The position numbers and the translations under genes are program-made. From contig OZ024743.1 in the NCBI GenBank assembly GCA_964016885.1, positions 27,714,001-27,778,000 of the forward strand: a stretch of DNA of 64,000 bases, in the 5' to 3' direction. Source of the stretch: Eledone cirrhosa (Eukaryota). The notes under the pieces are model-generated. The model was given only the letters and a program-made list of their open reading frames with translations, was not told the DNA's origin and ran no database searches. The stretch's first letter is position 1. The number at the start of each line of letters is the position of its first letter. Positions 10,576-63,382 of this stretch are shown here, in pieces.

Positions 10576-10582
<7 letters not shown>

Positions 10583-10786
10583 GTGAGGTTTTTTTTCCAA
10601 AATGAAAAATAACCGAGGTGTCCTACACGAGTGAAAGTATAAAGAAAAAAAGATGAAATCGAAAATGCAACTGGAGTCTTATTTAAAAAATATATATATA
10701 TATTTATTTGGTTCCTTTACCGGTTTCGAAGTTCTTCTGCTTTTCAAAAGTAAAGTTGAGATGAAGGGTCTGTGGTTTTTCTCACA
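10576..10786 (-). mobile_element. Short (about 210 bp) copy of the U3-A8 HHR family; HHR at 10715-10750
   Basis: Reverse complement of about 37231-37438, flanked by (TA)n/(CA)n. Confidence 0.85.
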
Positions 10787-10890: not shown

Positions 10891-11078
10891 AACGAAGGAG
10901 TTGTGCTAAGGAACAAGATGGACCAGAACGCACCAGAGTACTCAATATTTAGGGTAGTAGAGTGGGTAATAGGAAAATGTATGACCCCGACGGCAGAGCT
11001 GAAGCCGTGTCGACGGCTATTTCCAGAAATAGCCGTCGAAACGGCTTGAGCTCTTCCGTCGAGATCATACATTTATCC

Positions 11079-15906: not shown

Positions 15907-16225
<319 letters not shown>

Positions 16226-18545: not shown

Positions 18546-18735
18546 AAAAAGAGTCAGGACCCCAACAGTTGAGCTCCGGCCGTTTCGACAGCTAGTTCAA
18601 AATTAGCTGTCAAAAAGGCCGGAGCTCAGCCGTCGGGGTCCTGACTCTTTTCCTATTACCCACTCTACTACCCATAGTATCGAGTACTCTGGTGCGTTAT
18701 GGTCCACCTAGTTGCTTACCACACTTCCTTCGTTA
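18543..18735 (+). repeat. Fold-back insert of the ccttcgtt family
   Basis: Centre gacagcta gttcaaaat tagctgtc. Ends in ccttcgtt followed by (AT)n. Confidence 0.8.
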
Positions 18736-20409: not shown

Positions 20410-21128
20410 ATACATACATACAAATAATAAATGACATCCGGGTCAATGATGCTAAAACAGCAAAGATTCTAACCAGCACCGGAAATGTCCATAACAACGG
20501 TGAAGTATGCCGGTGATGTATGCATATAATAGATACATATCATGTCTGTAGATATATGAAAATATGTATATGTGCACATATAATTGAAACCATAGAGATC
20601 AACATATGTAGTGACATCCATACTTGCGCCCATATGTTAAAGAAGATAGACGTTCAATATTAGTTAGCTGATATTGCCAAAAACAAGATGATGTATGACA
20701 GAATAAAGGAAAGACACAAAATAAGAATCCAGTTACTGAGGAGGTCACGAAAGAGCTTTGACAATAAACAACCATATAAACAACCTTCCTGTTATTGATC
20801 CAACCAACTGGAAATTTGTAATAATAGGTACGTGTGTTTTTATTGGCAGCATGAGACCCTCATAAAGTGTAACAGTATCTGTCGCAACACACGTTTCCAG
20901 ATATGAAATTAAGAAATCTTGCAACACTAACTCATAAACGAAATATATATATATATATATATATAACGAAGGATGTGTGGTAAGGAACCAGGTGGACCAT
21001 AACGCACCAGAGTACTCGATACTTGGTGTGGGTAATAGGAAAAAAGTTAGGTCCCCGAAGGCTGAGCTCCGGCCGTTTCGACAGCTAGATCTGAACTAAC
21101 TCAGTAGTGCTAACACTGACTATTTTCC

Positions 21129-33780: not shown

Positions 33781-34024
33781 GGCGATGAATTAGTTTTGCG
33801 AGGTTTTTTAATATGAGATCGTGTGTCGAAACAAGTATTGTTATACTTCGGGAGGGTCATATTTGTGTAATATTGCCAGAATTAATAACAGAACACACTC
33901 ACTGTTTGGTTGGTTTTCGCTTCTCGCTTCTGTGTCTTTTATATCGGTAATCTAACTACTCGGTCCTCAATGTTGCCATTGACTGACCGACGGTCAAAAA
34001 TAATACAGATACAATATAGACACA

Positions 34025-34086
34025 AACACATATATATAGTTTATCATAAATATTTCGTTGCACATCTGCAACATCGTCAGTGGTGC
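34025..34086 (-). ncRNA. Hammerhead ribozyme in the PLE 3' region; mutated mirror copy at about 36321-36380 on +
   Basis: Minus strand reads cca CTGACGA t gttgca gatg tgcaac GAAA tat...ata TA. Stem II is perfect and stem I is weak. Confidence 0.6.
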
Positions 34087-34285
34087 TATCGTTTCCTCCC
34101 GTTGCATTGTATGTCTACGCCATTTTTATTCAGTCTGTCTATATATTTATTTATTTATTTGCTTGTTTGTTTATTTTATTTTGTCTTCTTTGCGCATGCG
34201 TTTGCGTGTGTGTATAGTGTTTTGTTTGATGTGTGATGGGTGACTAGTGTGTGTTTATGTGCTTGTTGTTATTGTGCTTGTGTAT

Positions 34286-34324
<39 letters not shown>

Positions 34325-34343
34325 TTTTATTTTATTTACTTAT

Positions 34344-35668
34344 TTATACTTCTCTTAGGTCAGTGTTGTTTGTTTGGGTGTTGTTGTTATTCCATTCATT
34401 CTTTCTGTTTAGTCTTGGTCTTCTAATTTCTATTTCACTGGCCTCTCTGATCTGTCTATCTGCTGGGTCATTTCTATGTTTAGATATTATTCTAATTTCT
34501 ATGTTGTTTATGTTACCGTCATGTTGTTGTCTACCATGTTCGTAATGTACTGACCCGTTTTTTCGTCCTTTTAGTTCCCCCCAGTGTTGGTCTATCCTTT
34601 CACCTATGCTACGAGCTGTCTCACCTATGTATGTTGTTGTCATGTTTCTGTACGTACCCTCTGTACATCTTATGCTATAGACTACGTTTCTAGTTTTACA
34701 GTTTATCCGGGGGTTTACCTTACATATGATACATTTCCTATTGGTACAGTGCGTTTTCTTAAAGGGGTAGGTTTTGCTGATCGGGGATTTTATGGTGGTT
34801 CATGGCTTTTCTACCACCTTAATTTTTAAGTGGGTCTTTCCCAGGGCCTTTCTACACTGGTTAGCTAATTTCCCTCCAGGGGTAGCGTCCACAAACATGA
34901 CACTGTGGTATCTCTGGTTGTCGTACCATGAGGTGGCTTTCCCTATCTTATGTCTAGCCCTATCTAAGCTATTCCATGATTTGCTCCTGTATAATGGGCA
35001 AATTCCTTTCATGTCCAGTTCTATGAGGGTCTTATACTTCTCCATGGCTCCTTCGTATACTCTGACTCTGTCTCTTTGGTTGTAGCCAGAGAACTGCATG
35101 CGGTTGATGAAGTGTTGGATGTGTCTTTCCATTTCTGTTGGGTCGCACATGCGGGACACATTCTTCATCACTTGTACCAAATCTGCGATCAGAATATTAA
35201 ACTTAGCACTACTGGACATTGCTGAGTTTTTTAGTATCAGGTATTTGGAGGCCATGGGTTTAGCATAGTGTGAGTGGAGAATTTGGGCTCTCTCGTCTAT
35301 AGTGTTAATCCAGAGTTATGTGTCTAATACAGGTAGTCTATTGTTAGGGTGTTTGGAAGGGAAGTCGATAGTTACAGTTATACTCTGGTGTATGGAATTA
35401 GCTATCTGCTGGATGCTTTCCATTGTGCTACGTTCTAAATCAAACTTGTTAGTGCTCTCTAGTGGGGATGTTCTTATAACTATATTGATATCGTCTACAT
35501 AACGAGAGTACATGATGAGGTCTATGGAGCTCTCATTAAGGAGATCTTTAAGTCTCCTTTCCCACCATACCATGAAAAGGTTGGCAACATCACCAGCTAT
35601 GCTGACGCCAATGGCTGCTCCCTCATTTTGGGTGTAGATCTTCTCGTTGAACTTAAATATGTGGCCCA
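34344..35668 (-). pseudogene. PLE reverse transcriptase and GIY-YIG endonuclease, disrupted
   Basis: FKFNEKIYTQNEGAAIGVSIAGDVANLFM, RYVDD, LPVLD, HYAKPMAS, FSGY, VMFVDATPGG; NVVYSIRC..YIGETARSIGER..H..RQIREA..LNRKNEW. Stops and frameshifts are present. Confidence 0.88.
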
Positions 35669-36074
35669 CTGTACCAATAGGAAATGTATCATATGTAAGG
35701 TAAACCCCCGGATAAACTGTAAAACTAGAAACGTAGTCTATAGCATAAGATGTACAGAGGGTACTTTCAGAAACATGACAACAACATACATAGGTGAGAC
35801 AGCTCGTAGCATAGGTGAAAGGATAGACCAACACTGGGGGGAACTAAAAGGACGAAAAAACGGGTCAGTACATCACGAACATGCTAGGCAACAACATGAC
35901 GGTAACATAGACAACATAGGAATTAGAATAATATCTAAACATAGAAATGACCCAGCAGATAGACAAATCAGAGAGGCCAGTGAAATAGAAATTAGAAGAT
36001 CAAGACTAAACAGAAAGAATGAATGGAATAACAACAACACCCAAACAAACAACACTGACCTAAGAGAAGTATAA
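35667..36074 (+). pseudogene. Duplicated GIY-YIG endonuclease domain in the inverted arm
   Basis: CTNRKCIICKVNPRINCKTRNVVYSIRC..TYIGETARSIGER. Near-identical to the minus-strand copy. Confidence 0.85.
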
Positions 36075-36568
36075 ATAAGTAAATAAAATAAAATAAATAA
36101 ATAAATAAATAAATAAATACATACACAAGCACAATAACAACAAGCACATAAACACACACTAGTCACCCATCACACATCAAACAAAACACTATACACACGC
36201 GCAAACGCATGCGCAAAGAAGACAAAATAAAATAAACAAACAAGCAAATAAATAAATAAATATATAGACAGACTGAATTAAAATGGCGTAGACATACAAT
36301 GCAACGGGAGGAGACGATAGCACCACTGACGTTGTTGCAGATGTGCAACGAAAGATTTATGATAAACTATATATATGTGTTTGTGTCTATATTGTATCTG
36401 TATTATTTTTGACCGTCGGTCAGTCAATGGCAACATTGAGGACCGAGTAAGTTAGATTACCGATATAAAAGACACAGAAGCGAGAAGCGAAAACCAACCA
36501 AACAGTGAGTGTGTTCTGTTATTAATTCTGGCAATATTACACAAATATGACCCTCCCCAAGTATAACA

Positions 36569-36685
<117 letters not shown>

Positions 36686-36696
36686 CATATATATAT

Positions 36697-37438
36697 AAGG
36701 AAAAAGATGAAATCGAAAATGCAACTGGGGTCTTTTTTTAAAAAAGAATATATACTTATTTGGTTCCTTTACCGGTTTCGCAGTTCATCTGCTTTTCAAA
36801 AGTAGATTTGAGATTGTTTGGCACAAAATTCTCTAAATGGCTATAAAAAAATTCCAAAATACGGGCGCAAAATCTAATGTACTTGTTCACGTGACAGACA
36901 TAATTTCATTTATAACCAATCAAATTATATTTATTAAAAAAAGCCTTCGTGAGCCACTTTTTTTTAAGTACAAAGAAATTTAAACACAAACTGGCGCGAA
37001 AGCTGATGTGATTATTCACGTGACTGCATCAACCAATTAAACTTCACTAATATATGAAAAAACAACCTGAGCCCCCATCCCCCTTTTTGTTTGAAGAACT
37101 TTGTAACGCGAACTGGCGCAAAATTTATTATACTTATTCGCCAACCAACCAAATTACTTCTCTAAAAACCTGGCATTTCGAGCCACTTTTTTCCATATAA
37201 AACAGAAGTAACATTCAAAGACCAACCAGATGTGAGAAAAATCACAGACCCTCCATCTCAATTCTACTTTTGAAAAGCAGAAGAACTGCGAAACCGGTAA
37301 AGGAACCAAATAAATATATATTTAAAAAAAAAAGACTCCAGTTGCATTTTCGATTTCATCTTTTCTCCTTATACTTTCACTCGTGTAGGACACCGGTAAT
37401 TTTTCATTTTGTAAAAAAAAAAACGTCACTTTCTAATA
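36697..37438 (+). mobile_element. pLTR-like element with promoter-like repeats, a U3-A8 HHR (37267-37302) and an inverted left arm (36697-36812)
   Basis: ctt TTGAAAA gcag aagaa ctgc GAAA ccgg TA aag. The mirror copy is at 36767-36802. Confidence 0.8.
36850..37230 (+). promoter_or_regulatory. Putative element promoter: three approximately 125 bp subrepeats plus a TATA box
   Basis: GGCGCRAAA at 36864, 36993 and 37115; CACGTG at 36888 and 37017; CCAAT at 36916 and 37033; TATAAAA at 37196-37202. Confidence 0.55.
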
Positions 37439-37504: not shown

Positions 37505-37550
<46 letters not shown>

Positions 37551-37659
37551 CGAAGGAAATGTGGTAAGGAACCAGGTGGACCATAACGCACCAAAGTACT
37601 CAATACTTAGGGTAGTAGAGTGGGTAATAGGAACGAGTAGGACCCCAACTACTTGTTCC

Positions 37660-37702
<43 letters not shown>

Positions 37703-37824
37703 AGGAGGTGAGTTTTATTGTAGCACAATAAAGCAATGCAAATATCGGATAAGTAGCACTCCACAGTTTATAGAACTGGAGTAAAAATAATATAAGATCA
37801 AAATATGGTTAAAAGAGTTCCATG

Positions 37825-37895
37825 TATTTTATTATGCGCATTTCAAAAACAAATATCATCCTGGGATGATATTTGCGTTCTCATCAGATAAAATA
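37825..37895 (-). ncRNA. Hammerhead ribozyme, inverted copy in the Naiad left arm
   Basis: Reverse strand reads tattttat ctgatga gaacgcaaatatcatcccaggatgatatttgttttt gaaa tgcgca ta ataaaata. Confidence 0.85.
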
Positions 37896-38159
37896 GGGAG
37901 ACATGATATGAAACTTAAAAGACACTTGCGAGCAGTGAAGTGTTAAATCAACATATTAAAAATAAAGTAAGAGATTGGGGAAAAAAGGAAGAGGGAGAGA
38001 AGGAAAAGGTAAGGAAGAGGAAGAAAGAAAATAAAGGATGACGGGGGAGGAGTATAAGAAGGAAGGAGGAGAGAGGAGGAGAAATGAGTGAGAGAGAGAT
38101 AGCCTTTAATACTGAGAAATACTGTCTCACAGAGAAAATAAAAAAAAAACGTTGTAAGA

Positions 38160-39623
38160 CTAGAGCTGATACTTCCAACAATTTTCATATCACAATAGGT
38201 TCGTCGGATTCAGCCCAATTGACGGACTTGATTAGTATCTTTATTTTGAATTCTTTAAATCGGAAAATTCCTCAACTTGGCGGTGGAATTTATCTTGACG
38301 ATGCCCTTTTTACTGTCTTAATCTGTAACTTAGTTAACCTTAATATTATTAAGAATAATATACTTGATGTATTTAAGCACCATAACCTAACAATTGAATT
38401 TGAAAACAACATCAAACTAGCTAACTTCCTGGATATATCCCTTAATCTTGACACCAGTCTATATTACCCTTACCATAAAGACAATGAGAATCTAAATTAT
38501 GTTAATTTTAAATCTAATCACCCCACTAACGTTAAAAATGCTATAGTCAGTAATGTTGGAAAAAGAATCTCAAATCTATCCTCTAATAAAGTTATCTTCG
38601 ACGCTAATGCCAATTATTATAATAATGCGTTTTACAAAGTCGGTTATCCTGATAAAATTAAATATAATAAAGAAACCAATCATCGAAGGACTTATAGTAA
38701 AATAGTTAGTTATGAACATTCCAATAACTTAAATAAAAGACCTAGATACAAAAATATGATTTGGTCCCACGCTCCTTTTTCTCTATAGTAATATTCCTAA
38801 ACTATTTTTAAGGGCCTTAGATAAATGATTCCCTCCCTCGCATATCTATAGTAAGATCTTTAACAAACATACAATCAAATTCTCTTATTCCACCACTTCC
38901 AACATCTCTAACATTATCTCTAAACATAATAATAAAATATTAAATAATAAATTATGTCCATCCAACACTGAGCGTCATAATAATAGCAATAGTAAACCCG
39001 ACGTCAATGTTAACTCTAGGCTAGATTCAGTAAATTTCTATACGACGTCAAACGTAACTTTGTCGAATGTTCATAACACCAATCTAAATCAGGAAACTAT
39101 AGTACCTATCGTAAATAACTTCTCCAATCCAATTCCTTCTATAAATAATACTAGGCCACTTGTTAATAACTCTGGTATTTTCTCTAATCGTAATTGTAAT
39201 TGCCCTGTTAGAACTAAATGTCCTCTTAATAACCAATGTCTTGATAAACATTTAGTGTATGAATGTAAGTTTATAATTGGTACTAATTCTTTTACGTATT
39301 TTGGTTCCACTTCCACTTCCTTTAAAGCAAGATTTTATAATCACAATTCGTCTTTTAAATACCAACTTAAAAGAACTATCACGGCACTCTCAGAACTCAT
39401 ATGGTCCTTAAAAGACAAAAATATTAACTACAACATCTCTTGGAGGAAGGTTTGCAACGCCTATCCTTACCGGAATTCTTCCCTATCCAGAACATGTAAT
39501 CTCTGCCTAGCCGAGAAATTTACCATTATCTCTAATTTTAATTCTATAATAAATAGATATACGGATTTATTTTCGCTCTGCTTGCATAAATCCCATAGAA
39601 CTTTTCATAAAGTATACAGCTAA
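38160..39623 (+). pseudogene. Naiad-type PLE RT-thumb-GIY-YIG polyprotein; partial, with a frameshift near 38785 and an in-frame TGA at 38826
   Basis: RT motifs FHITIGSSDSAQLTDL, GIYLDD, NFLDISLNL, YVNFKSNHP, KIFNKHTIKFSYS. Endonuclease motifs CNC..CPLNNQC..VYEC..YFGST..FKARFYNH, TALSELIW, CNLCLAEK, CLH. Confidence 0.88.
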
Positions 39624-40563
39624 TATCTCAATACCTAATTAGTTTAAAATCTTCTTTTCTCAAACGCTTTTATATCTTTTACAAATATACCCATCTTTCT
39701 ACCTTATTTCAGTATATTATATTATACAATTTACTCATTCTATTTTTCTTCTTTTTTATACTTTTTTCCTTTCTTCCTTTTTATCTTTTTGAATTTCTAA
39801 TCTATAATCTGTAACTTTTACTTCTCAATTACTTCTTAATTCATATTATTACTCACTTTAGCATTTTCCTTATATTCTTGGCCATACAAACTATATTTTT
39901 AATATATACTAATATTACCATTAGTAAATTTTGTAAACATATATATATATTTTGACGTTATATTTTTCTTCCTTAAATTATATTCTTTCTTCTCTCCCTC
40001 CGTGCTCGTATTAAACCTATTATTTACTTTTTCATATTACAATACATATAAAAAATCTTAAACCCTCACTAATTCCTCTAAGTTCATAATTCATTTAATC
40101 TCTTCCTCATTCACTATTTCTATTTTAATAATACATATTAATAAATTCCTTTTCGCACATATTATTAAACCCTTCAATATATAAACCTTAAATAAATACT
40201 ATTCTTGAATTCCTTTTTCTTTAATCATAAACATCACCATTCATAATCCTAATTAACTTTTAATTTCAATTTTTTTTTAAATATGTATTATCTTACAACG
40301 TTTTTTTTTTATTTTCTCTGTGAGACAGTGTTTCTCAGTATTAAGGGCTATCTCTCTCACTCATTTCTCCTCCTCTCTCATCCTTCCTTCTTATACCCCT
40401 CCCCCGTCATCCTTTATTTTCTTTCTTCCTCTTCCTTACCTTTTCCTTCCCCCCTCCTCCTTTTATTTCCCAATCTCATATATCCATCTTACTTTATTTT
40501 TCATATGTTGATTTAACACTTCACTGCTCGCAAGTGTTTTTTAAGCTTCATATCATGTCTCCC

Positions 40564-40634
40564 TATTTTATCTGATGAGAACGCAAATATCATCCCATAA
40601 TTATATTTGTTTTTGAAATGCGCATAATAAAATA
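40564..40634 (+). ncRNA. Minimal type I hammerhead ribozyme in the Naiad pLTR
   Basis: tattttat CTGATGA stem II GAAA tgcgca TA ataaaata. Stem I pairs over 8 bp and stem III is the palindrome TGCGCA. Confidence 0.85.
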
Positions 40635-40656
40635 CATGCAACTCTTTTAACCATCT

Positions 40657-40690
<34 letters not shown>

Positions 40691-42628: not shown

Positions 42629-42632
<4 letters not shown>

Positions 42633-43060
42633 TAAACGGAATAGAAAATGCTGACAAATTGTTCACAGTTGAAAAATGGTTTAATTAGGAATAAAAGAGT
42701 ATTAGTGATTGTATGGGTTAGTATTCAGTTGTGGTTTTAAGTGTTTAAGTTTTTACCGGTTGCGCATTTCTAAATGCTTTTCAAAAATAATTTTGAGATA
42801 GAGTGTCCGTGCTGTTTGCTCTGATCAGAGCAAACAGCACGGACACTCTATCTCAAAATTATTTTTGAAAAGCATTTAGAAATGCGCAACCGGTAAAAAC
42901 TTAAACACTTAAAACCACAACTGAATACTAACCCATACAATCACTAATACTCTTTTATTCCTAATTAAACCATTTTTCAACTGTGAACAATTTGTCAGCA
43001 TTTTCTATTCCGTTTACCAATATATAATAACTTGTGTGTTACACCTCTATTCTTTTAACT
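42629..43060. repeat. Spacerless palindrome with 196 bp arms; relative of the U3-A8 family
   Basis: Centre ctga|tcag at 42824/42825. Arms 42629-42824 and 42825-43020. HHR-like ttgaaaa gcatt taga aatgc gcaa ccgg ta aaa. Confidence 0.9.
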
Positions 43061-43372
43061 ATATATATATATATATATCAACTAGAAATTGATTGACATA
43101 TATATATATATATCTAAAATAAACATATGAAACAATCACAGGGAATAATTTGTAAAAGTGTGTAAGCACACATAGACAGGTAGGTAACTAATTAAAGTTT
43201 AACTAGAACTTTAAAAATAGATACGTTATAAATTGATTAATCTTCTTGTATATATTTCATTAAAGAAATATATTTCACCATTAATCGATCAGTAAACCAC
43301 AGTAGCCAAATTACGAATTTTCAACAAGAGAGAAGATCTAACTATTTGTGTTTACACAACAAATTTAAATCT

Positions 43373-43609
43373 GCTTTTCAAAAATAATTTTGAGATAGAG
43401 TGCTCGTGATTTTTACTCTAATCGATTAGAGCAAAAATCACGAGCACTCTATCTCAAATTTATTTTTGAAAAGCATAAGAAATGCGCAACCGGTAAAAGC
43501 TTAAAACTAAAACTGAATACTAACTAATACTTATTACTAATTTATATTTATTCGTAATTAAACTATTTTTCAGTGGGAAAAATTTGTCAGTATTTTCTTT
43601 TCCTTTTTA

Positions 43610-43612
<3 letters not shown>
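43373..43612 (+). repeat. Second, diverged fold-back copy of the same family
   Basis: Centre taatc|gatta at 43423/43424. The right arm is homologous to 42825-43020. Confidence 0.8.
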
Positions 43613-43664
<52 letters not shown>

Positions 43665-43796: not shown

Positions 43797-44684
43797 TACG
43801 AGGTGTGTCAGAAAAGTTCCAGGACTGATGTCACAAAAGATTTATTTCAAACCCAAACTTCACACTAAGAGTTTTCTCCTTCAAAGTAATCCCCCTGGAA
43901 TATGTAACTGTAATCTTGGCTCTCTGCAGCGATCAAAATGTTTTTTCATAATTTTATATACATATCCTCTGTTTCAGGTCGTCAAGCAATGAGCACAGAG
44001 CAACGAACAAACTTGAAGTTTCTGGTACGGTTGGGGAAAACTCCGTCAGAAACACTGGGATTGCAGCAGCAAGTGTATGAAGATAAGACGATGTCACGCT
44101 CACGTGTTTTTGAGTGGTGCAAGATGACTCCAGGAGCGGAAGGCCCTCAACAACCAGGACTGAGGTCAACGTTCAGCGCGTAGGCAGATGGTGCGTAGCA
44201 ATCGTCGGCTGACTGTTCGACTGATGGCAAATGAGCTGGGCATGAATCGAGACAGCATCTGGAAGATTCTCACTGAAGATTTGGACATGCGGAAAGTCTG
44301 CGCGAAGATGGTGCCAAAACTGCTGAACGATGACCAGAAGGGTCGACGCATGCAAGTGTGCCAGGACATCCTTGAGGGTCTTGAAACCTTTCCAGACTTG
44401 CTAGGGACAGTCATCACCGGTGATAAGTCATGGGTCTTCGAGTACGAGCCGGAGGGGACCCGTTTTGTAGATGTGGACGACATCAAAAAGGCTGTGACGA
44501 CGGAAGTGCGGAGGATCCCGGAAGAATCCTTCCAGGAGTGCAAGCAAGCGTGACAGAAAAGGATGGAAAAGGGCATTAGACTCCAGGGGGATTACTTTGA
44601 AGGAGAAAATTCTTAGTGTGAAGTTTGGGTTTGAAATAAATCTTTTGTGACATCAGTCCTGGAACTTTTCTGACACACCTCATA
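43797..44684 (+). mobile_element. Internally deleted mariner transposon with 103 bp TIRs
   Basis: TIRs at 43797-43899 and 44582-44684, TA flanks. EQRTNLKFLVRLGK, RSGRP, KVCAKMVPKLL, ITGDKSW, GDYFEG. The second and third catalytic Asp regions are deleted. Confidence 0.92.
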
Positions 44685-45305: not shown

Positions 45306-45913
45306 GTCAGGTCACCAGTTGGTGCTACTGGTAACATGTATTCCAGTACAACCTGTCCCATGGTCGGGTCGTTGGCGACTAAACTGGCAACCCCACCAAG
45401 GTTTCTTGGTGATGAGGGTGACTTTGGACATTCTGCAGGACTAAAAACAAAACCTGTCAAAGGGCAAAGGAGCTCTTAAGAGTCAATGGCCATCCAAAAT
45501 CACCGGGAGAGATGACCCCTTAGCCTTTGTCAAGGCAGAATTCTAGGAGAAGGAAAACTCTGATATAACACCTGCAACCCTGATGGTATTCAATGATGTT
45601 GACTTGTTCTTCTTTTTGGTAAATATCATCTTGGTTAAGAGAGTGGGACTGGCTTTGTGCAGTGCCTTTGCTCACTATTAAAGCTTCACGGCAGAGGCAT
45701 TGCTTTATATCTGGAGATCTCTCTGCACTTGTCGTCACATGGTACCATGGGCCCAGCACTGTGTGTCAGTAATTGTCACAAGTGTAGTGTTTGTACCAGA
45801 GTTTTCAAGTCGCTGGCTGGACTGAAGTCGCACTCGTTCAGCGCATCGGTAGGGGTTCTCCTACATGGATATAAAGTAGTGGCCGTACTCGAAAACGAGT
45901 TGGCATTCACCAT
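45306..45913 (+). mobile_element. About 610 bp non-autonomous RTE-derived bipartite element, family X, full length
   Basis: RTE-like 5' motif ggagaaggaaaactctgat, C2H2 remnant CSVCTRVFKSLAGLKSH and a (TATG)n tail. Confidence 0.75.
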
Positions 45914-50992: not shown

Positions 50993-51586
50993 CATGGTGG
51001 CTGCCAACTCGTTTTCGAGTACGGCCACTACTTTATATCCATGTAGGAGAACCCTACCAATGCGCTGAACGAGTGTGACTTTTTAGTCCAGCCAGCGACT
51101 TGAAAACTCTGGTACAAACACTACACTTGTGACAATTATTGACACATAGTGCTGGGCCCATGGTACCATGTGACGACAAGTGCAGAGAGATCTCCAGATA
51201 TAAAGCAATGCCTGTGCTGTGAAGCTTTTATAGTGAGCAAAGGCACTGCACAAAGCCAGTCCCACTCTCTTAACCAAGATGATATTTACCAAAAAGAAGA
51301 ACAATTCAACATCATTGGATACCATCAGGGTTGCAGGTGTTGTATCAGAGTTTTCCTTCTCCTAGAATTCTGCCTTGACAAAGGCTAAGGGGTCATCTCT
51401 CCCGGTGATTTTGGATGGCTATTCACTCTTAAGAGCCCCTTTGCCTTTTGACAGGTTTTGTTTTTAGTCCTGCAGGATGTCCAAAGCCACCCTCCTCACC
51501 AAGAAACCTTGGTGGGGTTGCCAGTTTAGTCGCCAACGACCCGACCATGAGACAGGTTGTACTGGGATACATGTTACCAGTAGCAC
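50993..51586 (-). mobile_element. Family X, near full-length copy
   Basis: Reverse complement of family X, in (ATAC)n. Confidence 0.78.
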
Positions 51587-51624
51587 TAATACATACATTC
51601 ATACATACATACATACATACATAC

Positions 51625-52611
51625 AAAAAAGAAATATCATTAGAATAGCGACTGATCTTGAGGAGAGATATGGAATAAAGCCTGATATAAATCTCTCACC
51701 CAGAGAAATCGGAAGATCCTATTCAATGTTCAAACAAGATAAAAAAATTGACCAATTTACAGAAAAAGTTGTGCATGGATACTTGAGGCGTAAAACACAG
51801 ATCATAGAGGGGATAAACCACTCAAAAAGCCTGGCATGGAGTTCCGACAAGTTTATGACATCACACCTTGAGGGATATCTCTATGCAATACAGGAACAAG
51901 AACTCGCTACCAAATATCTGCTGCACAAAAGAGGAGGGCCAGCAGCTGACAATAAATGTAGGCTATGTAAAACAAAGATCGAGGATGTAAGCCACATTGT
52001 TGCCAGCTGCGAAAGAATGTCATCTCGCTACTACCTCCCCATGAGACACGATGGGATAGCTAGAACCATCTGGAACGCACTTCGGAAAACAAAATTAACA
52101 ACAAACGAGGAAGAATATATTGAGACAGATGGCACTAAGGAATACTGGTGGAACCTGAAAATAAAAACTGCCACCAAATTAAAGCACAACCGGCCTGATA
52201 TTGTAGTTTGGGACCACACATTGAAAACGTGTTCTGTTGTGGAGATCAGCTGCCCACTTGATGTAAACGTTGTCAGAAAAATACAGGAGAAGGAGGACAT
52301 CTACGGACCATTGATGAGGAGTTTACAAATCCAGTATCCAAGATACACCTTTAGCTTCATACCCATCATTATTGGTGCTACGGGTTATATACCAACCCGC
52401 TTGGACCAAAGTATGACTGAACTTGGATTTGCGGACAAAAAGCGCAGCTCCCTAATTCATAGTCTACAAATGGCTGCGATAGCTGGCACCTTCAAAATTT
52501 GCAAAACATTCTTGCGATTCAAGGGATGGCAATTTCTTTTCTTTTACAACCTTGCCACCAGGAAGGTGGCCGGTCAAAAAAATATACTCGAAATTAAGAG
52601 AAAGAGAAAAC
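51625..52611 (+). mobile_element. R4/Dong-clade non-LTR retrotransposon, 3' part with CCHC knuckle and restriction-like endonuclease
   Basis: AIQEQE, CRLC..EDVSHIVASC, RHD, HNRPDIVVWD, VEISCP, EKEDIY, IPIIIGATG. Flanked by (ATAC)n. Confidence 0.9.
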
Positions 52612-53152
52612 ATACATAGATACATACATACATAAATACATACATACATACATACATACATACATACATACATACATACATACATACATACATACATACA
52701 TACATACATACATACATACCTTGCCACCAGGAAGGTGGCCGGTCAAAAAAAAATATACTCGAAATTAAGAGAAAGAGAAAACATACTTACATACATTCTT
52801 GTACGTAAACATATTTCTATGCAATCCTATTTACTACATGTTTCGTGATTGAGAAAATTTCAGAAGAATGAATGGAACAGAAAATGAATCCTCATTATAA
52901 TATAAAGATAGTGGTTCTTGACCAAATTATCTGATCAAAATCTTTAAGGATAAAAATGGAATATCTCTACCATATATCAAATAGTCCCCAATACCGGCAT
53001 TACCATCCTCAGCGCCATCTATATTATATTTTGATATTGCGTCCCAATGTTGACTCAATAAAAATCTCATTCAGAGTTTCAATCATTTCTTTGATTGCTT
53101 TGCAAGATATGTCGTAACCCTTATTTATTTCGCTCGTTCGTTCGTTCGATCA

Positions 53153-56277: not shown

Positions 56278-56887
56278 GTCAGGTCACCAGTTGGTGCTAC
56301 TGGTAACATGTATCCCAGTACAACCTGTCTCATGGTCGGGTCGTTGGCGACTAAACTGGCAACCCCACCAAGGTTTCTTGGTGAGGAGGGTGACTTTGGA
56401 CATCCTACAGGACTAAAAACAAAACATGTCAAAGGGCAAAGGAGCTTTTAAGAGTCAATGGCCTTCCAAAATCTCCGGGAGAGATGACCCCTTAGCCTTT
56501 GTCAAGGCAGAATTCTAGGAGAAGGAAAACTCTGATATAACACCTGCAACCCTGATGGTATCCAATGATGTTGACTTGTTCTTCTTTTTGGTAAATATCA
56601 TCTTGGTTAAGAGAGTGGGACTGGCTTTGTGCAGTTCCTTTGCTCACTATAAAAGCTTCACGGCACAGGCATTGCTTTATATCTGGAGATCTCTCTGCAC
56701 TTGTCGTCACATGGTACCATGGGCCCACCACTATGTGTCAATAATTGTCGAAAGTGCAGTGTTTGTACCAGAGTTTTCAAGTCGCTGGCTGGACTAAAAA
56801 GTCACACTCGTTCAGCGCATCGGTAGGGGTTCTCCTACATGGATATAAAGTAGTGACCGTACTCGAAAACGAGTTGGCAGCCACCAT
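56278..56887 (+). mobile_element. Family X, full-length copy
   Basis: Same ends as 45306-45913 and near-identical. Confidence 0.78.

Positions 56888-62893: not shown

Positions 62894-63382
<489 letters not shown>

Follow-up and report, generated by a model that had tools for sequence, protein, structure and literature searches.

GIY-YIG Penelope elements, and in particular the Neptune-like ones, are the closest described relatives of the element reported here. The accounts in PMC8557442 and PMC3846280 give them a reverse transcriptase (RT) with a C-terminal GIY-YIG nuclease and a Cys motif before it, partial tandems, inverted 5' arms, an optional tail, microsatellite targets and a hammerhead in the pLTR. 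Solo pLTRs (PMC3846280) and pLTR start sites (PMC8557442, PMC2377424) are already in print, and a putative TATA box plus Inr as well as 5' palindromes were noted in rotifer pLTRs (PMC3846280). The only Penelope promoter mapped in vivo, that of D. virilis Penelope, is described as internal and TATA-less; its start lies inside the upstream pLTR, so that a partial tandem is needed for expression (PMC2377424). For the anole Poseidon element PAc, internal priming, AT-rich targets, extension of both strands and use of uncut RNA were reported in vitro, no cut ends were found among the RNA reads, and the main text contains no analysis of the 5' ends of genomic copies (PMC11167929). The U3-A8 variant of the minimal type I hammerhead, with a palindromic helix III, was described in PMC4209133, where single motifs stayed uncut in vitro and a circular template was proposed for more-than-unit copying. 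These sources leave as open questions how the promoter is regained after retrotransposition and what the hammerhead does (PMC4209133, PMC11167929, PMC8557442).

We analysed a window of 64,000 nt from the Eledone cirrhosa genome (assembly GCA_964016885.1, contig OZ024743.1, positions 27,714,001 to 27,778,000), whose host assembly is 3.0 Gb long and (TA)n-rich. The element found there (family A) shares the features listed above for Neptune-like elements, but most of its copies consist of the pLTR alone and have a sharp 5' end at the putative start, and its tail has 65 nt, compared with the 30-40 nt reported for Neptune-like elements. The centring of its palindromes on the sense start speaks for a sense template rather than for the antisense self-priming that PMC3846280 proposed. 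As in anole PAc, two internal priming sites appear to bound the tail and the targets are AT-rich; in PAc, however, the ORF contains the priming sites and the ribozyme contains the ATG, whereas in family A all of these are in the 5' UTR (PMC11167929). The transcript probably starts inside the upstream pLTR, as in D. virilis Penelope, but the promoter appears to be of TATA type and to lie upstream of the start (+1), and short copies would therefore lose it. The hammerhead is like those of Penelope-like elements and non-LTR retrozymes (PMC4209133, bioRxiv 10.64898/2026.07.22.740005) in its U3-A8 type I form, its palindromic helix III and its mostly dispersed single motifs, but the short copies, unlike retrozymes, are bounded by the putative start and priming sites and not by the ribozyme cut. 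The element class itself is known, and the new part is the contrast between two templates: in the passages cited here and the listings of our literature searches, neither a majority class anchored at the start site nor its contrast with ORF-bearing copies came up.

The parent element in the window

The initial annotation placed the long copy at 36850-37438; its 3' limit was kept, while blastn moved its 5' start to 36814. The inverted arm of this insertion begins at the first putative priming site and adjoins (TA)n. Self-alignment revealed three imperfect repeats of ~125 nt in the promoter part, containing words that we take to be E2F-like, E-box and CCAAT-like, and in other copies the equivalent of this part runs upstream into a GIY-YIG/RT ORF. 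In the downstream direction, 132 exact matches continue from the pLTR past 37438 to an ATG ~25 nt later, and a second repeat was located downstream in 33 of 40 fetched junction loci, mostly 4.5-5.2 kb away. Since the repeat enters the ORF and a second repeat follows downstream, family A is an autonomous Penelope-like element with RT and GIY-YIG and with partial tandem pLTRs.

Table 1. Features of families A and B in the window (positions in window coordinates; +1 denotes the putative transcription start)
Feature	Position	Strand	Remarks
Short copy	10576-10786	-	From +4 to tail end; aligns to 37231-37438; microsatellite setting
Short copy	16010-16225	-	From +3 to tail end; aligns to 37230-37438; (TA)n setting
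Inverted 5' arm of long insertion	36694-36814	-	Copies 37255-37373; 91%, blastn
Long copy	36814-37438	+	5'-truncated 3' end (pLTR) of ~4.7-kb Penelope-like element
Promoter part / 3' UTR, 5'-truncated	36814-37227	+	From self-alignment and motif positions
TATA box, TATAAAA	37196-37202	+	At -32 here, at -30 in most copies
Initiator-like CCAGATG	37226-37232	+	Putative +1 = A37228, upstream edge of the 5'-end peak
Short-class region	37228-37438	+	Equals the 5' UTR before the ORF in tandem elements
Minimal type I hammerhead	37270-37299	+	Read from the sequence; predicted cut after 37299
Tail	37374-37438	+	Between putative priming sites 37373 and 37438, short TA run beside each
Family B head-to-head pair	42629-43060	.	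Centre near +1; tail on right arm, none on left
Family B head-to-head pair, second subfamily	43369-43615	.	Short left arm; centre near +1

A single ORF encodes RT followed by a C-terminal GIY-YIG, according to the order of domains in the translations; in these decayed copies GIY-YIG (E=1.4e-5) scored above the cut-off and RVT_1 (E=1.8e-5) below it. Family A has the traits of EN+ Penelope-like elements, namely an inverted 5' arm, an optional tail and a hammerhead motif in the pLTR. The translations also contain C-x4-C-x2-C before GIY-YIG, which corresponds to the Neptune-clade motif CX2-5CxxC as defined in PMC8557442; Nematis has the motif too.

Clustering of copy 5' ends below the TATA box

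The TATA box and the initiator-like motif lie exactly where they had been annotated, with A37228 located 32 nt below the first T, and alignment confirmed the starts of the two short copies at the equivalents of 37231 and 37230 (about 37230 in the initial annotation). The putative +1 precedes the hammerhead core by 42 nt, in agreement with the earlier estimate of about 40 nt. For the 5' limits, we used a 21-nt tail anchor with 7,416 exact genomic matches and took the first 100, recording the 5'-most reach over both arms; like the other samples of this study, these come from the first contigs, in order of matching, and not from random draws. In particular, 17 limits lay above 37120, 7 in 37120-37224, 59 in 37225-37238, 3 in 37239-37299, 9 in 37300-37316 and 5 lower, so that the ends are clustered and not scattered, as had been anticipated, and roughly a quarter of the sampled copies reach above the TATA box. 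The 59 peak matches include two that are arms of one insertion and three from one tandem locus. Compared with a uniform distribution of the 83 limits (out of 100) ending between 37120 and 37373, the peak has a binomial p of ~1e-54. Its upstream edge is sharp: 20 limits fall at 37227, 11 at 37228, one at 37225 and none at 37207-37224, and those at 37227 are mostly fold-backs, in which the C is attributable to either arm. As a genomic pattern, this peak is solid.

TATAAAA was present in exact form at -30, -31 or -32 in 144 of 157 long copies, and the spacing between TATA box, initiator and 5' end is common to three families (A, B and C), which is the main ground on which we call +1 a Pol II start. 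The peak likely marks the start site of a TATA-type Pol II promoter, and the thousands of copies would amount to a fossil 5' RACE that maps the likely start to a base. The base before +1 is C in 5,474 matches, G in 529 and A or T in 460, where a signal of a cap-derived G is confounded; in most of the 30 G loci that we read, microhomology, slippage or a point change within a long copy accounts for the G. In contigs of two runs of uncertain kind, possibly the assembly's own DNA, depth rises at +1, a rise to which we gave no weight. Splicing at the CAG was also considered and is unlikely, given that the AG is retained in the copies and that these have no upstream exon in common.

Templates of the short and the ORF-bearing copies

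We used 40 of the 132 pLTR-ORF junction copies as a contrast set. Among their sense arms, 11 stop downstream of +11, 29 pass +1 and none ends in the +1 window; the ends of the 29 arms are scattered from -14 to about -1860. The inverted arms of ORF-bearing insertions pass +1 in 19 of 20 cases, one stops at +23 and none at +1, and the first 30 junction copies had given the same picture. Full copies made from an mRNA that begins at +1 would be expected to stop there often, but none of the 29 arms does, as against 59 of the 83 limits in the general sample (Fisher p ~1e-12).

Across all fetched loci, 72 arms ending near +1 join a sense arm that starts at or after +1, 38 join microsatellite, 19 are unclassified and one joins upstream element sequence (locus L007); the search design enriched this set for such arms, and 71 + 9 further arms ran past +1. 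In fold-backs, both arms carry the same subfamily marker (19 out of 19). The contrast between ORF-bearing and short copies, the pairing of arms and the shared markers together point to one kind of template per insertion and two kinds overall, and because a +1-ended arm is rarely paired with a longer one, the RNA behind the short copies seemingly lacked the ORF and the upstream promoter. Linear pLTR-only transcripts are the likely source of the short copies, and the promoter-bearing tandems likely come from a template without a 5' end at +1. The latter would be a circle produced by two hammerheads, a jump to a second RNA or a read-through transcript, which we rate about equal. The 5' and 3' pLTRs of one element differ by 1.7%, compared with 2.8% to other copies with the same marker (10 usable elements out of 33), a difference that speaks for the circle; the own pLTR partner ranked first in 4 out of 10, and the comparison does not separate circle from jump. 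The absence of cut ends from the anole RNA reads (PMC11167929) speaks against a circle.

The explanation that we consider probable as a whole is run-off copying at +1 of mostly pLTR-only transcripts. Many promoter-bearing 3' ends would fire RNAs from +1, through both priming sites and into the flanking (UA)n, and such a pLTR-only RNA, with its single minimal hammerhead, would stay uncut. The enzyme of the element would nick (TA)n and prime inside the RNA at +146 or +211, in which case the RNA need have no defined 3' end. The reverse transcriptase would then run off the 5' end of the linear uncut RNA at +1, the likely reason for the sharp stop of most copies at A37228, and two run-off cDNAs, or one snapping back, would produce head-to-head palindromes centred at +1. 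ORF-bearing tandems would arise from the other template, in which the promoter precedes +1.

The same start site could also be combined with short copies that arise as cis-acting misfires, by priming within the full-length mRNA's 5' UTR, and with whole-ORF cDNAs that jump to the 3' repeat of a second RNA and regain the promoter in this way. The 5' UTR of tandem elements does contain both priming sites, and the cross-family junctions at loci L103 and L176 (see below) show jumps or joins between templates. We nevertheless regard this alternative as unlikely: an RNA with two repeats should make mixed insertions common, but none of the 20 inverted arms ends at +1 and one mixed case was seen, and almost every long cDNA would have to jump, but few of the short ones.

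Nearly all sampled copies end at 37438: sense arms end at this position and inverted arms usually start at 37373, with short TA runs beside both positions, joined to (TA)n. The 3' ends of ORF-bearing elements are found at the same places, 18 out of 33 at 37438 and 11 out of 33 at 37370-73, and the copies have no poly(A) tails but run into (TA)n. These two shared 3' ends fit internal priming on (TA)n targets, which better explains the 3' end because ORF-bearing copies share it and the ORF follows ~25 nt later. In the initial annotation the substrate was a discrete Pol II RNA of ~210 nt from the pLTR promoter, copied to its 5' end, which we read as an RNA with a defined 3' end that is copied over its whole length. 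The nearly uniform end at 37438 and a template seemingly without ORF would suit such an RNA, but it is improbable given that the 4.7-kb elements have the same 3' ends (29/33), that the second end at 37373 is also used, that poly(A) tails are absent and that internal priming was established in vitro (PMC11167929); with ends shared by ORF-bearing elements and priming sites matching those of the anole element, a discrete RNA is not required. That part of the proposal is unsupported, together with the defined 3' end, whereas a promoter-derived substrate agrees with the TATA- and initiator-spaced 5' ends in three families, which place its putative start.

It is very improbable that the 5' boundary is an RT stall or a processing site within a longer RNA. 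Family A has a predicted weak hairpin that spans +1 to about +32 (37228-37259), but a stall would be expected at the 3' foot of the hairpin; moreover, the ORF-bearing cDNAs traverse this stretch in 29 out of 29 cases, and an unrelated family has the TATA spacing as well.

We also compared 77 copies by subfamily. The numbers of long and short members per subfamily marker were 6/21, 16/20 and 1/6, with 1/6 unassigned, mean distances were 5-6% both within and between the long and short classes, and labels of nearest neighbours agreed in 0.62 of cases versus 0.56 after shuffling (p=0.24). Since every subfamily includes short copies, these do not form their own SINE lineage but were made repeatedly from each subfamily. 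The promoter motifs, in addition, lie upstream of the copied part, which is not the case expected of a SINE, and non-LTR retrozymes do not match either, as the sampled copies are monomers or head-to-head pairs and not head-to-tail hammerhead units. A short SINE-like master, derived from one old truncation and self-amplified, would account for the many copies and their uniform ends, but is hardly credible with long and short members in each subfamily, like distances within and between classes and short copies devoid of a promoter. Many of the short SINE-like repeats found in such genomes would, on this pattern, be by-products of pLTR transcription that lack a promoter.

Hammerhead motif, related families and other repeats

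The family A hammerhead is a U3-A8 variant with a 4-bp helix II and a palindromic helix III, and its core words were kept in 254, 250 and 235 of 267 copies (about 90%). The Rfam search returned no ribozyme match; what it did list were spurious miRNA matches that fall short of the gathering scores. The cleavage site is intact in the short copies, which span it. The earlier view that they were copied without hammerhead cleavage fits the main class, while for a minor class the start may be the cut itself. Raw junction counts at 37275, 37290, 37296, 37300 and 37302 were 9, 50, 71, 105 and 66, and became about 4, 8, 12, 70 and 35 when insertions with further 5' sequence were subtracted (adjusted counts scaled from 9-30 loci per position). 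The resulting 5'-end step at the predicted cut (37300) would speak for a circle but is weak and only suggestive, confounded by TA microhomology and an AT-rich stretch next to the site. A reading with three RNA species is possible but doubtful: uncut pLTR transcripts from +1, a minor set of hammerhead products starting at 37300, and a unit-length circle, cut by the hammerhead and ligated, that would rebuild the promoter-bearing partial tandem through rolling reverse transcription. If true, the copies would hold an in vivo trace of the circular-template model, and the presence of a dimer-dependent ribozyme in every pLTR would be explained. In one head-to-head pair (L313/L314), both arms stop exactly at the predicted cut, with a foreign, near-palindromic insert of 20 nt between them.

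The palindromes that had been annotated as related to the long copy belong to family B; they are centred at 42824/5 and about 43423/4 and, as had been claimed, fold back within ~4 nt of the equivalent +1. Family B has 7,907 anchor matches, with CATAAAA at -31/-32 and TCAGAT at +1; 28 of 78 arms end between -6 and +11, 44 are longer and 6 shorter. This family is related to A by shared ancestry, so it is not independent of A. At position 13 of its hammerhead a C stands in 58 of 59 copies, and the two junction copies that were read also carry the promoter; the core change counts against a universal circle route. The hairpin pairing at +1 looks kept in family B (42821-42850). At loci L103 and L176, a family A short copy directly abuts promoter or 5' sequence of family B, which suggests cross-family template switching or co-insertion.

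Family C has no blastn similarity to A or B. Its promoter, read from only 3 loci, has TATTTAAA at -29 and a TCAGT initiator, and 54 of 58 arms in the fetched flanks end between -6 and +11, with an anchor near +12 that hides shorter copies. No ORF was linked to this family and no standard hammerhead was recognised in it. Window sites of family C are 10893-11073, near 18550-18733, 20966-21100, 37550-37655 and 62897-63258; its anatomy comprises a fixed 5' end below a TATA-like box, a tail, fold-backs, TA targets and a strong hairpin.

Another Penelope-like element, family D, occupies 37690-40660, with ORF pieces at 38042-39623, an inverted arm with tail at 37802-37972 and a canonical CUGAUGA hammerhead word near 40572. 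Among its 15 matches in the fetched DNA there was no sign of a short class with a fixed 5' end. A further rearranged Penelope-like copy lies at 33957-36449, where long inverted repeats surround RT and GIY-YIG-like fragments (34344-35843 on the minus strand and 35463-36074 on the plus strand). Finally, 44164-44553 holds a fragment whose translation we take to be a mariner-like transposase, and 45319-45826, 51052-52619 and 56291-56828 hold pieces of a non-LTR element with a zf-RVT match.
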